Below, in pieces: positions 9,420-42,416 of a stretch of DNA of 64,000 bases (position 1 is the first letter of the stretch; every line of letters starts with the position of its first letter). The notes beneath the pieces were generated by a model, which saw nothing but the letters and a program-made list of their open reading frames with translations, had not been told where the DNA came from and made no database searches. The stretch comes from a virus, in IMG/VR virus record IMGVR_UViG_3300028558_000018, positions 1 to 64,000 of that record; one strand, 5' to 3'. Both the position numbers and the translations under genes were made by a program.

Positions 9420-9521
9420 TTATTTCAAATAACCACAGCTACACGGAGCGGAATCCCAACATTTAGGACATTTTGCCTTGAGCCAACCATTGGGCGCGGG
9501 GACTACTTTTACGCATTTCAT
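9420..9521 (-). CDS. small Cys-rich protein (33 aa, MKCVKVVPAPNGWLKAKCPKCWDSAPCSCGYLK), not in ORF track
   Basis: TTGACG at 9551-9556 lies 35 nt upstream of the ATG like other promoters; stop lies 3 nt before the next start. Confidence 0.55.
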   Translation of the reverse strand: MKCVKVVPAPNGWLKAKCPKCWDSAPCSCGYLK

Positions 9522-9552
9522 AAGAGGAGAAAACCAAATTGATTTCCCTTCG

Positions 9553-9894
9553 TCAAGAACTTTCTAATTTTTCTTTAAAACAAATCTTTGAAATTTCCCC
9601 AAACAATTTCGGCCCAGAGCAAGTTTGAAGATAAATTCTATTAAGATTAATAATTTCCTCAATATCAAATTGATCCGTGCGACCTTTAATTGAGCGAATT
9701 ATGCTAAATTTACGATTATTTTTAATAATTATAAATTCTTCTTTTCCCCTTGCATCAAATAAAGCGCGCTTTCTCGCGGAATCGGGACAATTATTAGCAT
9801 TAGCTTTTTGTTTTTCTCTATGAGTGCCACCATCTTGCCAAGAGCGTTTTAAACCGGCGATGATTCTAATTTTGGCTTTTTGATTTAGCCGCAT
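9553..9894 (-). CDS. basic hypothetical protein
   Basis: 113-aa ORF. Confidence 0.6.
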   Translation of the reverse strand: MRLNQKAKIRIIAGLKRSWQDGGTHREKQKANANNCPDSARKRALFDARGKEEFIIIKNNRKFSIIRSIKGRTDQFDIEEIINLNRIYLQTCSGPKLFGEISKICFKEKLESS

Positions 9895-9914
9895 GACTTT
9901 TAAAGTTGTTATAT

Positions 9915-10178
9915 CTACTTGTTGGGCAGAGAAGGCGGAAGCGGTAGCGGCATCCAGTGGGTCATCCGGTTATTCGTCGGAATCCACCCCGCGCCGTGCC
10001 GCCAGATTCCATAGTCTTTATCCCACGTGATTACATACTGGCAGCGGTTCTCTGCGCTGTATGCGAGGATTCGCGTGCCGTCTTTCGGGGCGGTCGTTAT
10101 CGGAGCCCAACCATGCGTTACAGACAATGCCGCGCACGGTTCCGGCGAGACTTCGGGAGTTGGTAGAGAGCGCGTCAT
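9915..10178 (-). CDS. DUF551-like phage protein in cassette 1 (first ~25 aa encoded by attC1)
   Basis: WAPITTAPKDGTRIL...THWMPLPLPP signature. Confidence 0.8.
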   Translation of the reverse strand: MTRSLPTPEVSPEPCAALSVTHGWAPITTAPKDGTRILAYSAENRCQYVITWDKDYGIWRHGAGWIPTNNRMTHWMPLPLPPSLPNK

Positions 10179-10199
10179 GTCTGATCTGTTTTGTTAGGC
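10105..10199 (+). repeat. attC site 1 (95 bp)
   Basis: R'' GCCCAAC, 5-nt spacer, L'' GTTACAGA (extra base), stem CAATGCCGCGC/GCGCGTCATG, L' TCTGATC, 6-nt spacer, R' GTTAGGC. Confidence 0.85.
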
Positions 10200-10399
10200 G
10201 GGGCGCTGTCCTCGAAATATGCGATGCGCTCAATCCAGTGCGCATGAAGTCGCGGGTGTTTCTTTATCATGAAAACGAGCGGGTTCTCATCTTCGGGGAT
10301 TTCCTGCTCCTCGCCATAGAGGGCGTGCAGAATCTCGCCCGCGAGCCATTCGCGGTGGGTATAGGTCTTGTCGAGGGGCCAAATCATTCCGGCGTTCAT
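10175..10399 (-). CDS. hypothetical protein in cassette 2
   Basis: 74-aa GC-rich ORF between the attC sites; stop TGA overlaps ATG of next ORF inside attC1. Confidence 0.7.
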   Translation of the reverse strand: MNAGMIWPLDKTYTHREWLAGEILHALYGEEQEIPEDENPLVFMIKKHPRLHAHWIERIAYFEDSAPPNKTDQT

Positions 10400-10403
10400 A
10401 GCG

Positions 10404-10508
10404 TTAAAATTCGGAGCCTAACCAAGCGCTAGACCCAACGCTCGGGGCTTGGTCCGCGCTCTGTCCCGAGCGCGTGTCACCTCGGGTGTTAGGCTTTAAA
10501 AATTTCAT
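10404..10508 (-). CDS. 34-aa leader peptide reading through attC2 (MKFLKPNTRGDTRSGQSADQAPSVGSSAWLGSEF)
   Basis: ATG 35 nt downstream of TTGACG (10538-10543); stop 4 nt before the cassette-2 ATG. Confidence 0.5.
   Translation of the reverse strand: MKFLKPNTRGDTRSGQSADQAPSVGSSAWLGSEF
10416..10494 (+). repeat. attC site 2 (79 bp)
   Basis: R'' GCCTAAC, 5-nt spacer, L'' GCTAGACC, perfect stem CGCTCGGG/CCCGAGCG, L' TGTCACC, 6-nt spacer, R' GTTAGGC. Confidence 0.85.
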
Positions 10509-10545
10509 ACCCAAATAAAACTAAAATGTTCTTCTTTCGTCAAGT

Positions 10546-11415
10546 TCAAATATTAAACTTCTTTCTAAACTCTTCTATCTCATTGGTATCCATCATGTTG
10601 AAATCCTTTTTTTGCGGCAGCGCAATTTCAATTTTATCCTCATTAAAAAATTGCAACAATTTGCTCCTTATTCGTTCCGCCGCTTTGTTTCCTATGGAAA
10701 AATTTTCAACTTCATTATTTGTGCTAATTAGGATGCGATTGGGATTAATGCGAATTAAATAAGAGAGGAGTTTGCTGGATATTTCCACTCCGAATAAACA
10801 TAATGTGTTATTTATTCCACATTCAGATAAATACAATATATCGGCTGGACCTTCGGTGATTATTACTGTGCGAGAACATTCTATTGAGGTCAAATCGCCA
10901 CCAAAAATCCATAAACTCTTATTTCCTAAATGACGCCATTTCGGACCATAGCCGTCATTATTGAGTTTTCTACCTGTGAATCCTATAATTTTGTCTCGTT
11001 GTTCGTTAAAAATAGGTAATACCGCCCTTGAACGCATTTGGCCCTTAAGAGCCACGCCCATTTGAAATTTTTCGCACGTTTTATTAGATATTCCGCGAGA
11101 GTTAAAATAATCGTGATTTTTGATTAAGCCTTTGAGGATATTTAAATCCCAGCTTTCGGGGAGAGTGATTTTCGGCTCTGGAATTTGAGCAATAGTCTCC
11201 TCGTTAGATTCTGTTCCAATTAATTGTAAAATTCTCCCATTGTGCTCTTTGGAATCATCAACAATACAATTAAATTTACCGCTTGCGAAAACTCGCAAAT
11301 GGTTCTTGGACAATGCGTTGCGCCCATTTTCCAAACATGCCGGACAACATCCAATATACCCGCCGTCACTCTGGAGCATTTTTCCCTCTAATTTATCTAG
11401 ATCAATAATATTCAT
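10546..11415 (-). CDS. DNA primase (zinc-binding + TOPRIM)
   Basis: CPAC...H..C N-terminus, IIGFTGR, IITEGPAD TOPRIM motif, KDFN. Confidence 0.85.
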   Translation of the reverse strand: MNIIDLDKLEGKMLQSDGGYIGCCPACLENGRNALSKNHLRVFASGKFNCIVDDSKEHNGRILQLIGTESNEETIAQIPEPKITLPESWDLNILKGLIKNHDYFNSRGISNKTCEKFQMGVALKGQMRSRAVLPIFNEQRDKIIGFTGRKLNNDGYGPKWRHLGNKSLWIFGGDLTSIECSRTVIITEGPADILYLSECGINNTLCLFGVEISSKLLSYLIRINPNRILISTNNEVENFSIGNKAAERIRSKLLQFFNEDKIEIALPQKKDFNMMDTNEIEEFRKKFNI

Positions 11416-12809
11416 TTAATTTCGTCTCGGCTATTCTTAGAATTGCCAAACGGTTCAAATTTTTCTCCATCTGGATTGCTTGGGCCGGTCCATTGTTGAA
11501 CGGGATACTCAACCAACGAATTATCTTTAATATATTGATTATACGCATCTAAAGCCTCTTTCTCGGTCCCAAAGTTACCAATTTCTTTAAAAACCCCTCC
11601 CCTTGGGCGTAAAAACGCCTGCCATCTTTGACTCCTTTTTATAAAGGATATCCATTTATATTTTGAATATTTCTTCTTTATTTTCAAAAATCTTAAAAAG
11701 GCATCCTTATCCATAAAAACTTCTACGGGGTTAGGAAAAAATAAATCCCCATAGATTTCTCTCCCAAAATAATTATAAGCATTAATTGCCGCGTTTTTAT
11801 CGGAATAATTTCCCACATATTTATTTCCAACCATACACGCCCATCCCGCGCCATTCTTTTTAATGCCCCTCACTTCGTATTGCCTTTTTCTATCTGGGCA
11901 GAAATTAGCTTTAATCGCCGCTAGTCTTAATTCTTCAGTTCTATTCTCATATTTATTATCTTCGGCACGTTGTAAAAGCCACAAATATTTATTATATTTC
12001 CTATCTAGCCCGATTTTGTCAATTTCTCGGTTTTGATAGATATATTTACAGAATTTGAAAACATTATCCCTCGCCGTCAAAACTATAGAAGAACTCTTTC
12101 CCAATTCATTTATACATTTTTGAATATTATATTTAGTTATATCCAAAGAATTAAACAGTTCGATGACAAAGCTCCAATCATAATCATATGAAGATGCTAT
12201 TGAGATGCCATATCCGTAGGATTCATCATTAATACACCCATCTCCGTCAACCAGCCCGCGCCACCAATAATGTTTTAAATAATTTGGAATTTTATCGAGA
12301 ATTTTTTGCGCGCTCACCTTCGATTTTATATGATGATCTGTAGATAATAGCCATTCTTTAACCTCGCTATTATATGACCTCATAGAAATCGCATTTTTAT
12401 GCTTCTTGGACTTTGCCTTCCTTTGGTAAATTGACCATTTGCCAATTTTATCAATAATACCTTCTTTTATATTGTTATAATCTTCTTCGGCTATGCAAAA
12501 AGAAAAACACCAACCGATATCTCTGGCGCAACCGTCAGCCCAAAAATAACCTAAAAAATAAGCTACTTCAGGGGAAGTTATGTTTAAAAATTGTTCTACT
12601 TTAACGCCTGCCTGTTCATTCGTATAACGACGCCCCTTGGATGCCACTAACCATTTTTCTTCCTTAGTTAAAACTAAATTATACTCTTTAAATATTTTTG
12701 TAATAAACCCCGCCGATCTTTTTAGATGTTCACAACAAAATGTATTTCCATTTTTATAGTTTTCTAAAATAAAATCCAATTCGTCCTTTGTCAATGTGCT
12801 AGTCCTCAT
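11412..12809 (-). CDS. free-standing LAGLIDADG homing endonuclease with C-terminal AP2-like domains
   Basis: AYFLGYFWADG and WWRGLVDGDGCI motifs; two GNY/F..EKEA..AYN AP2-like repeats. Confidence 0.8.
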   Translation of the reverse strand: MRTSTLTKDELDFILENYKNGNTFCCEHLKRSAGFITKIFKEYNLVLTKEEKWLVASKGRRYTNEQAGVKVEQFLNITSPEVAYFLGYFWADGCARDIGWCFSFCIAEEDYNNIKEGIIDKIGKWSIYQRKAKSKKHKNAISMRSYNSEVKEWLLSTDHHIKSKVSAQKILDKIPNYLKHYWWRGLVDGDGCINDESYGYGISIASSYDYDWSFVIELFNSLDITKYNIQKCINELGKSSSIVLTARDNVFKFCKYIYQNREIDKIGLDRKYNKYLWLLQRAEDNKYENRTEELRLAAIKANFCPDRKRQYEVRGIKKNGAGWACMVGNKYVGNYSDKNAAINAYNYFGREIYGDLFFPNPVEVFMDKDAFLRFLKIKKKYSKYKWISFIKRSQRWQAFLRPRGGVFKEIGNFGTEKEALDAYNQYIKDNSLVEYPVQQWTGPSNPDGEKFEPFGNSKNSRDEIK

Positions 12810-39835: not shown

Positions 39836-41031
39836 AACGGTTTAATAAAATTTAATCCTTTTAGATGCTTATTCTTTTCTTTAATCCCCTTTATGTAATT
39901 CCACGCAGTAACAATTACATCTTTATTCTCCTCGCTCTCCAAAATTTCCTTGCCGACAATCGGAATTCCAACTTGAGGAATAAATTTCCCCTGACGTAGC
40001 GGAGATTCATCTACCACGTAGCTAAATCTAATATCACTCATATTGTTAAACCAAGTATTGGCCCTTCCGCTTGCTCCATAGGCGATATTATTTGGATTTT
40101 TCAACATTTTTTGCGCCACGGGATTTGCATAACGTGCTTTATAATGAACGTTGAAATATTTGAATTTTAGTTTATCAAATTCAATATCTTTAGTGTTGTC
40201 GTAAATGAATTTCTTTTTAGAAAAAAACACCCTTAGACTACCTCCGTGATTCTTAATTTTTAGATTAAAAATCGGGAAAAGCCCTACTAAAGAACAGACC
40301 TTCACAAGCGAATGCAGCGAATAATTAATTTTATGCTCATGATAAATAAAATCCCATGCTTTATCGTCAAAAATCGCGTCCAAATCGCCTACTTCGACAC
40401 AAAATAGACCATTTGGTTTCAACGCGGCGAAAATTCCTTCAAAAACAGGCTTTAAATCGCTAATATGAGCGAGGCAATTCGCCGCGAAAAGATGGTCAAC
40501 AGTGGATTCCAAGTTATTTTGCTTAACAAAATCAAGATTAAATCCCTCGTTAAACAATTTAACATGGCTGAATTTGGGATTTTTACTGGCGCGTTTTGCC
40601 ACATCAGAGGGGTCAACTGCGATAATATTCCAATTTTTGGGCAAATGTTGAATTAGTGGAAACGAATTCGCTCCAATTTCTAAGAACGTAAACCCATCTT
40701 TATCTCCATTTGCTTGAATTAATCTATCTGCGTATTCCTTAAAATGAGCAACTAAAGCGGGAATTGAACTTGAATCATAATTATACTTCTTAAAAAGAAC
40801 TTCATCGGAAATATTCTCTCTAACTTGCACCGCGCCGCAATTTTGACATTGAACCAAAGTGAGGGGAAACAGCTCTGCGTTTTTGGCCTCCTCTAAAGAC
40901 TCCGCGAAGTGTCCGGCAAGGGGCACGGGTTTTTCAAACTCAAAAACCGGAATGAGGCTTTCGCCGTGGCAGCAACGACATTGAGTAATATCTGTATAAT
41001 TTTTGCTAATAGGCATAATTAACGAAACCAA
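39832..41031 (-). CDS. NDP-sugar C3-methyltransferase (NovU/TcaB9-like)
   Basis: CRCC/CQNC zinc site, LEIGAN, NCLAH, YHEH, HGGSLR, AYGASGR, VTAWNY. Confidence 0.85.
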   Translation of the reverse strand: MVSLIMPISKNYTDITQCRCCHGESLIPVFEFEKPVPLAGHFAESLEEAKNAELFPLTLVQCQNCGAVQVRENISDEVLFKKYNYDSSSIPALVAHFKEYADRLIQANGDKDGFTFLEIGANSFPLIQHLPKNWNIIAVDPSDVAKRASKNPKFSHVKLFNEGFNLDFVKQNNLESTVDHLFAANCLAHISDLKPVFEGIFAALKPNGLFCVEVGDLDAIFDDKAWDFIYHEHKINYSLHSLVKVCSLVGLFPIFNLKIKNHGGSLRVFFSKKKFIYDNTKDIEFDKLKFKYFNVHYKARYANPVAQKMLKNPNNIAYGASGRANTWFNNMSDIRFSYVVDESPLRQGKFIPQVGIPIVGKEILESEENKDVIVTAWNYIKGIKEKNKHLKGLNFIKPF

Positions 41032-41996: not shown

Positions 41997-42416
41997 TTAA
42001 AGTTTTGTATTTTCGAATATATTCCCGATAATTTCCATGCTTTTTACCGAATTAAAAGTAAAATCTAGTGGAATACTTGGCTCCTCGCTAACCAACGTAA
42101 ATCTAAATTCCGGCGCGGCATATTCTATTTTGCAAATTTGTTCGCCCGCTCTGCCCATGTCACATTTGAGAATATCACCCTCATAAACTTCCTTTTTGTT
42201 CTTATCTTTCAGACCAATAAATTGTTGATAAATAATTCGCCCTCCGAAGGCTGGCCCCAGCGGGTTGTTAGGATAAAAAAATGTCATATCCTCCATATCA
42301 TCTTGGTCTGGACAATCCCAACAGTCAGAGTCCAACATATATTCATCACATGGAACTTGGTCTAGCCATTTTTTGTTTTTATTATCCCATGCGCGAAATT
42401 TAATTTCTCTATTCAT
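41997..42416 (-). CDS. YopX family protein (copy 5)
   Basis: REIKFRAWD...QQFIGLKDKNKKEVYEGDIL...EIIGNIFEN. Confidence 0.85.
   Translation of the reverse strand: MNREIKFRAWDNKNKKWLDQVPCDEYMLDSDCWDCPDQDDMEDMTFFYPNNPLGPAFGGRIIYQQFIGLKDKNKKEVYEGDILKCDMGRAGEQICKIEYAAPEFRFTLVSEEPSIPLDFTFNSVKSMEIIGNIFENTKL

Follow-up and report, generated by a model that had tools for sequence, protein, structure and literature searches.

The window, a stretch of 64,000 nucleotides covering positions 1 to 64,000 of the IMG/VR record IMGVR_UViG_3300028558_000018, belongs to a phage record of 144,389 bp with 37% GC that CheckV rates 95% complete (IMG/VR values for the whole record). Positions 9921 to 10494 of the window form a 574-bp island of 58.4% GC between flanks of 35.5% GC (9721 to 9920) and 31.0% GC (10495 to 10694). 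The island lies in a 77-nt spacer between a DnaG-type primase gene and a gene for a 113-aa protein. The features of the region are listed below in window coordinates; a slash in G/TT marks the junction.

9553 to 9894, − strand: gene for a 113-aa phage protein, immediately downstream of the island (from the list of open reading frames [ORFs]).
9915 to 10178, − strand (attC bottom strand): ORF1, an 87-aa DUF551 protein (Pfam PF04448, 27.3 bits, cut-off 22; phrog_924).
9921 to 9927, + strand: left junction core site G/TTGGGC, fully complementary to the R'' box of attC1 (GCCCAAC); the GC step falls here.
9922 to 10193, + strand: cassette 1, 272 bp, ORF1 body plus attC1, with G/TT at 9921/9922 and 10193/10194.
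10105 to 10199, + strand: attC1, 95 nt, a hybrid with R'' GCCCAAC and R' GTTAGGC (covariance model R1, 57.7 bits, E = 9.4e-11, full length).
10175 to 10399, − strand (attC bottom strand): ORF2, a 74-aa orphan with a GC3 of 0.70, like ORF1.
10194 to 10488, + strand: cassette 2, 295 bp, ORF2 plus attC2, with G/TT at 10193/10194 and 10488/10489.
10404 to 10508, − strand: putative leader ORF, 34 aa from an ATG at 10508, read from the sequence.
10416 to 10494, + strand: attC2, 79 nt, R'' GCCTAAC and R' GTTAGGC, at the right island edge (R1, 41.3 bits, E = 4.2e-7, full length).
10546 to 11415, − strand: DnaG-type primase (Pfam DNAG_N and Toprim_2), preceding the island in the leftward transcription unit.

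A first, sequence-only reading had proposed a GC-rich island with its edges at integron core sites, and both parts of that description held. The step in GC content coincides with GTTGGGC at 9921 and with the position just past GTTAGGC at 10488 to 10494, i.e., with the two outer G/TT junctions. Five core-type boxes lie on the + strand of the island (GTTGGGC at 9921, GCCCAAC at 10105, GTTAGGC at 10193, GCCTAAC at 10416, and GTTAGGC at 10488), a count that none of 20,000 shuffled versions of the island equaled (mean 0.19; maximum 3). Beyond the island, GTTAGGC is present as a single copy in the 144-kb genome, both strands counted; GTT triplets number 4748. Read from these boxes, the G of the left junction is target derived and TTGGGC is the start of cassette 1. 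Searches by blastn returned no match for the region among INPHARED phages or for the island among PLSDB plasmids, and the 113-aa protein had no match in a family search (Pfam, PHROG). Homologues of the primase number 44. Directly upstream of the primase gene, a 465-aa ORF (11412 to 12809, − strand) matches the PHROG endonuclease family phrog_4645 and is probably a homing-type endonuclease within the replication module.

Each cassette ends in a site with a terminal R'' box of the form RYYYAAC and a terminal R' box of the form GTTRRRY. Between these 7-nt boxes, both sites have a 5-nt spacer and an L'' box with one extra base on one side, and an L' box and a 6-nt spacer on the other. The spacer and inner box read CATGC and GTT[A]CAGAC on the left of attC1 and GTCTGATC and TGTTTT on its right, in the order box and spacer; the corresponding elements of attC2 are CAAGC and GCT[A]GAC, and GTCACC and TCGGGT (extra base in brackets). 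This geometry agrees with the consensus of 49 bacterial sites. There is one mismatch in each L box. Covariance model R1, which is family specific and was built from 49 complete bacterial attC sites with the window sites left out, matched at exactly 10105 to 10199 and 10416 to 10494 and had no credible match besides these over the whole 144-kb phage. Rfam, searched at E ≤ 10 over positions 9500 to 10900, returned no attC-like family, just sub-threshold CRISPR-DR and snoRNA noise. Folding of the bottom strands, a check that the first reading had recommended, gave a 7-bp R stem plus a bulged long stem for attC1 and, for attC2, a structure with a z score of −3.0 whose stability was reached by 0 of 200 shuffles. 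Across the attC family, 9 of 12 stem pairs changed on both sides (compensatory), and 91.9% of cells were paired compared to 67.6% in shuffles and 18 to 40% with the 3' partners slid. The 5' half of attC2 resembles sites of the type found at L144:3459 and L081:4249.

The boxes also carry a record of how cassettes abut. In both window cassettes, R'' is complementary at 7 of 7 positions to the core that opens the same cassette, in keeping with what the sequence alone had suggested, including the hybrid nature of attC1. Among 59 bacterial cassettes, 48 showed the same perfect complementarity of R'' to the preceding core, as did 19 of the 20 phage cassettes (both of the window's included); R'' matched its own R' in just 23 of the 59 and 7 of the 20. 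As far as box sequences tell, this complementarity is the footprint of G/TT crossovers. The rule is strand symmetric and alone does not fix orientation. Judged by sequence, structure, and family model, both sites are genuine attC, and the two complete sites with R''/L''/L'/R' boxes, 5- and 6-nt spacers, and an extra L'' base that had been described at first sight stood up against the 49-site bacterial alignment. They are separated by 217 bp, and the record contains no integrase, which is the arrangement of a CALIN.

Relatives of these sites were located in genome contigs with an R''-L'' pattern, which gave at most five pattern matches per 8-kb locus and found arrays mostly in metagenome-assembled genomes (MAGs) of Opitutaceae/Verrucomicrobiota. 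Mapping by nhmmer raised this to as many as 18 attC sites in one bacterial locus. The same attC family was present in 36 of the 61 sampled genomes of the family (Opitutaceae type) that includes genome G002, with up to 67 sites per genome. G002:C25 encodes an integron integrase (39973 to 40899, − strand; TIGR02249, 380.6 bits, cut-off 265), and to its right a same-family array of at least 11 attC sites in 5 kb begins at 42040 on the + strand. The attI junction there reads G/TTCGGC and is followed by an ATG, and the R'' box of the first attC is GCCGAAC. The top strand of this array is opposite to the intI strand and points away from intI, which is the canonical arrangement. By family resemblance, the window attC sites belong to the chromosomal integron family of Opitutaceae-type Verrucomicrobiota. 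Sites of the same family were also seen on short MAG contigs assigned to Methylophilus (L090), Chitinophagaceae (L104), Armatimonadota (L118), and Saccharibacteria (L138); incorrect binning of integron arrays could explain them, as could true movement of cassettes between phyla.

The intI-linked array also settles orientation. The search pattern lies opposite to the array top strand in G002:C25 and on the − strand in the window; because of this comparison, the + strand of the window is taken as the canonical top strand, in agreement with the spacer and bulge asymmetry of the 49-site consensus layout and with the original assignment. A − strand functional top strand, under which the ORFs would be canonical, was considered and rejected, since the intI-linked homology and the 5- and 6-nt spacer/bulge asymmetry both point to the + strand. 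Therefore, both window genes are inverted relative to attC. In bacterial arrays of the family, the longest ORF was on the top strand in 106 of 113 cassettes and on the bottom strand in 7, codon-position GC agreed, and ORFs began 4 to 12 nt after R'. The layout of the two window ORFs, opposite to that usual one, was thus correctly described from the outset (ORF1, 9915 to 10178; ORF2, 10175 to 10399), as was the DUF551-like phage nature of ORF1, which has 90 relatives in viral contigs and is 73% identical to P0002 from the GC-rich phage contig L081.

Both genes are intertwined with the reversed attC sites. The ATG of ORF1 lies in the L' box of attC1, and the attC1 bottom strand encodes residues 1 to 25 of the protein. 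The codon for Trp24 (TGG) falls inside the R'' box of attC1, and W24 is invariant in a convincing alignment with 11 relatives; DUF551 relatives without attC begin M-x-x-W-Q-P-I-E-T-A-P-K-D-G. At the other end of ORF1, the last two codons and the stop fall in the phage flank. The ORF2 reading frame runs across the core site (..PPN..) and ends in a TGA that shares bases with the ORF1 start codon (ATGA) in the attC1 L' box. The sole homologue of ORF2 was P0004, a weak match (35% identity over 62 aa), and ORF2 had no Pfam, PHROG, or Atlas function. The putative leader ORF starts in the phage flank, crosses the entire reversed attC2, and stops 4 nt before ORF2. Consensus scans revealed no dedicated promoter or terminator for the island genes.

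The sequence-only reading had reported no integrase in the window, and this absence extends to the full record: a search for tyrosine recombinases (PF00589, E ≤ 1) over all 144,389 bp found none. Nor was a tyrosine recombinase found in nine other viral records with the same attC family, three of which CheckV rates 100% complete. The island flanks showed no attI-like similarity to two bacterial attI regions. A complete integron, i.e., intI with adjacent attI and Pc, is therefore not what the phage carries. A protein database places ORF2 and the primase on one contig of 183,909 bp, compared to the 144,389 bp of the virus record; the latter may have been cut out of this longer contig, and host DNA or an integrase could lie in what was cut away.

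The attC family of the window recurs in about 20 IMG/VR viral contigs, relatives of the phage included, in arrays of 2 to 10 sites (e.g., L087:318-3266, L086:97-2956, L167:1421-4747, L171:103-3998, and L089:9530-10173, among others). Phage markers on such contigs include a portal and a GpA terminase in L089, YqaJ and a DnaC-like loader in L087, and a terminase in L083. The arrays tend to sit among small genes by replication or terminase modules. A survey of attC orientation, as had been proposed, was carried out on these contigs: the bottom strand carried the longest ORF in 17 of 22 and 23 of 33 phage cassettes (40 of 55 overall), and the codon-position GC pattern agrees with the bottom-strand calls. 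Ten bottom-strand ORFs of phage arrays had no PHROG match, so the coding-strand calls rest on ORF length and codon-position GC. The bias toward the bottom strand was not uniform. That all phage arrays run antisense to phage genes was rejected, with 12 antisense, 6 in the same direction, and 2 unclear.

Cassettes were common to several phage contigs. A tblastx comparison of 55 phage with 112 bacterial cassettes found no shared content in this small sample. Homology-block boundaries between phage arrays were uninformative, as generic attC similarity extends the alignments. attC1 and L083:645-741 are identical at 95 of 97 positions, with homology running from GCCTAAC to GTTGGGCTC, and the genes on both sides are unrelated, so that one attC allele stands beside different contents. 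The N-terminal 25 residues of ORF1 are found again, at 92% identity, on the unrelated protein P0003 of L083. The segments 10105 to 10178 (− strand) and L083:666-741 encode the shared N terminus MTRSLP.PEVSPEPCAALSV.HGWA on ORF1 and P0003, and the homology ends at the R'' box.

Relatives of the phage had been named as a place to look for other cassettes, and a different one was found near the primase gene in L185 and L186. These contigs come from two separate samples, have 37% GC, and encode a primase 55% identical in amino acids to that of the window. Two attC sites lie 0.5 kb downstream of the primase gene (L185:3113-3883; also L186:1420-1530). In the L185 pair, the first site has a rare R'' (GCCCACC) and the second a rare R' (GGTGGGA), and between them is a normal G/TTAGGC to GCCTAAC cassette. 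The matched rare outer boxes are as expected if a cassette had been inserted into a resident phage attC, and we regard this box pattern as the best indirect sign of IntI-type events in the phage lineage. In the AT-rich L185/L186 cassette, both strands may carry ORFs, in convergent orientation. No empty site was recovered: primase homologues at 45 to 65% identity carry unrelated genes downstream, and peptide patterns did not find primase relatives in IMG/VR.

Taken together, these data favor a mechanism in which a host IntI drives cassette exchange (the most likely reading, with a probability of roughly 0.7); the catalysis by IntI, the host, and the expression of the genes are what we infer. 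The island is a two-cassette CALIN in a phage intergenic spacer. Under this reading, infection of an integron-bearing host would have allowed the host IntI to insert cassettes at a core-like G/TTAGGC in phage DNA, either sequentially or as one two-cassette circle, by a non-att ('attG' or secondary-site) route via the folded attC bottom strand. The preinsertion phage site would then have read ...ctacttGTTAGGCtttaaa... Since the attC bottom strand is the local phage coding strand, read-through of the leftward phage transcription unit would account for expression of the cassette genes. The reversed attC sites may supply translation signals, with the leader ORF over attC2, the ATGA in attC1, and the 25 residues encoded by attC1. 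The proposal in the sequence-only reading that phages exchange cassettes through a host integrase is accordingly plausible as a whole, and the parts that gained backing are those touched by the attC1/L083 allele and the L185/L186 cassette.

Several points weigh against insertion by IntI, among them the lack of a recovered empty site. TTAGGC at 10489 to 10494 must be phage derived in that case, yet GTTAGGC is rare in the genome; the target was then an uncommon consensus-like site, or something other than IntI made the right end. The occurrence of one attC allele beside different contents (window and L083) misfits simple coinheritance of cassettes. Finally, the phage has 37% GC, and the presumed host family is GC-rich.

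An alternative that accommodates some of these findings, and that we consider unlikely but worth weighing, is that the island is a passive passenger: a fragment of an array from another phage or a host, brought in by illegitimate or short-homology recombination, with attC sites that are relics and are not exchanged. A complete GTTAGGC at the right edge is easier to obtain if the whole R' box arrived with the fragment, and possible donors are at hand, since the GC-rich phages L083, L081, L087, and L089 carry same-family arrays and share the attC1 allele and the 73%-identical DUF551 gene. Qi et al. themselves raise off-target homologous or illegitimate recombination at GTTRRRY-like motifs (PMC9892861). 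A random fragment would nevertheless rarely have both edges on core sites, whole cassettes, and a left G/TT matching the R'' of attC1, and in L185 the boxes show the pattern of a true attC × attC insertion.

It is quite improbable, in our estimation, that the repeats serve phages mainly in a role apart from IntI, as intergene linkers (stop/start signals and leader peptide) or as sites of another recombinase. Several features lend themselves to such a role: reversed attC1 gives the same 25-residue N terminus to the unrelated ORF1 and P0003, the ATGA coupling and the leader ORF lie in attC sites, one attC allele stands beside different contents on both sides, and 40 of 55 viral cassettes, compared to 7 of 113 bacterial ones, have their longest ORF on the bottom strand. 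Against this, neither sequence nor structure sets the sites apart from bacterial attC adjacent to IntI, the core-complementarity signature of IntI crossovers holds in phage arrays, and the arrays are mixed in orientation to flanking phage genes (12, 6, and 2, as above). An assembly chimera, in which a GC-rich fragment of a co-occurring phage was joined into a low-GC contig, is scarcely credible: the contig is metagenome derived and its composition jumps abruptly, but a 574-bp insert with the same phage on both sides, within one spacer, would be atypical, ORF1 ends and the leader ORF begins in phage flank, ORF2 and the primase are recorded on one contig (183,909 bp), and attC cassettes are likewise present near the primase gene in the low-GC DNA of L185 and L186, which come from two samples.

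Integrons are usually regarded as bacterial gene-capture devices, and to our knowledge phage-borne attC clusters have been reported so far in just about 20 phages. Their novelty had been overrated in the sequence-only reading: Qi et al. (2023) described 17 CALINs in phages, some of them virulent, and found IntI1 to recombine five phage attC sites with attI1 (PMC9892861). Loot et al. reported cassette insertion by IntI at GWT sites in genomes, from which, they proposed, small CALINs originate (bioRxiv 10.1101/2022.09.11.507474). The kind of element found here is therefore already known from Qi et al. and Loot et al. Like the CALINs of Qi et al., the island has at least two attC sites bracketing small genes, no intI, and GTTRRRY at the boundary, and the phage appears virulent. 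Unlike them, its sites are of the Verrucomicrobiota/Opitutaceae family, and its two bottom-strand ORFs overlap these sites, whereas the best cases of Qi et al. are in the typical co-oriented arrangement (PMC9892861). The sites of Qi et al. were assayed with IntI1; those of the window are assigned by sequence and structure. The island resembles the attG insertions of Loot et al. in being a small array of whole cassettes outside attI or attC, with G/TT at both junctions and no integrase nearby; it differs in lying in a phage genome, in a reconstructed target that has the full GTTAGGC core and not a bare GWT, and in that the insertion itself is one that we infer.

Two further comparisons concern bacterial integrons. 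With the sedentary chromosomal integrons of Opitutaceae type (G002:C25), the island shares the attC sequence family, the structure, and the rule relating R'' to the preceding R', but those integrons have intI, attI, and top-strand ORFs, all absent from the phage island. Reverse-oriented cassettes in chromosomal integrons are typically toxin-antitoxin cassettes with promoters of their own. The window cassettes are like these in that the ORF is antisense to the attC top strand. They differ in content, since no toxin-antitoxin signature is seen in the phage DUF551 gene or the orphan, and in that the window ORFs appear to need phage read-through together with start and stop codons inside attC. Reverse-oriented cassettes of this chromosomal kind are a subject of PMC13108822 and PMC11023631.

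Beyond Qi et al. and Loot et al., the present case has a Verrucomicrobial attC family, reversed ORFs that start or stop inside attC with the codon of an invariant DUF551 Trp in R'', and recurrence of its attC family across about 20 viral contigs, with the same allele beside different contents. It adds a base-exact attC array in a large phage in which no integrase was found, and the attC family ties the phage to a specific bacterial integron family, which is a hint at the host. The inverted genes and the use of attC as a coding and coupling signal suggest that phages may shuffle accessory genes by host integrases in a way of their own. More broadly, and only tentatively, Verrucomicrobiota phages might keep integrase-less arrays and swap small accessory genes via host IntI, drawing on a cassette pool largely separate from the bacterial one and mostly 'backwards', with the reversed attC as a portable stop/start and leader-peptide linker. 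If this is true, backwards cassette genes would be expressed in phage transcription units and silent in a host integron.

Two other GC-rich segments of the genome lie beyond the window. A second sharp island of about 65% GC at 105,600 to 106,250 (L161:1900-2550) encodes a 173-aa Ala/Lys-rich protein on the − strand and has hairpin-like repeats on its flanks. R1 found no attC in it, and the 173-aa protein, examined as a possible host link, had no match in five Opitutaceae-type genomes. The other segment, 1.3 kb at 98,400 to 99,700 with up to 68% GC, would encode Gly/Ala-rich repeats on its − strand and looks like a glycine-rich fiber-type structural gene rather than foreign DNA.
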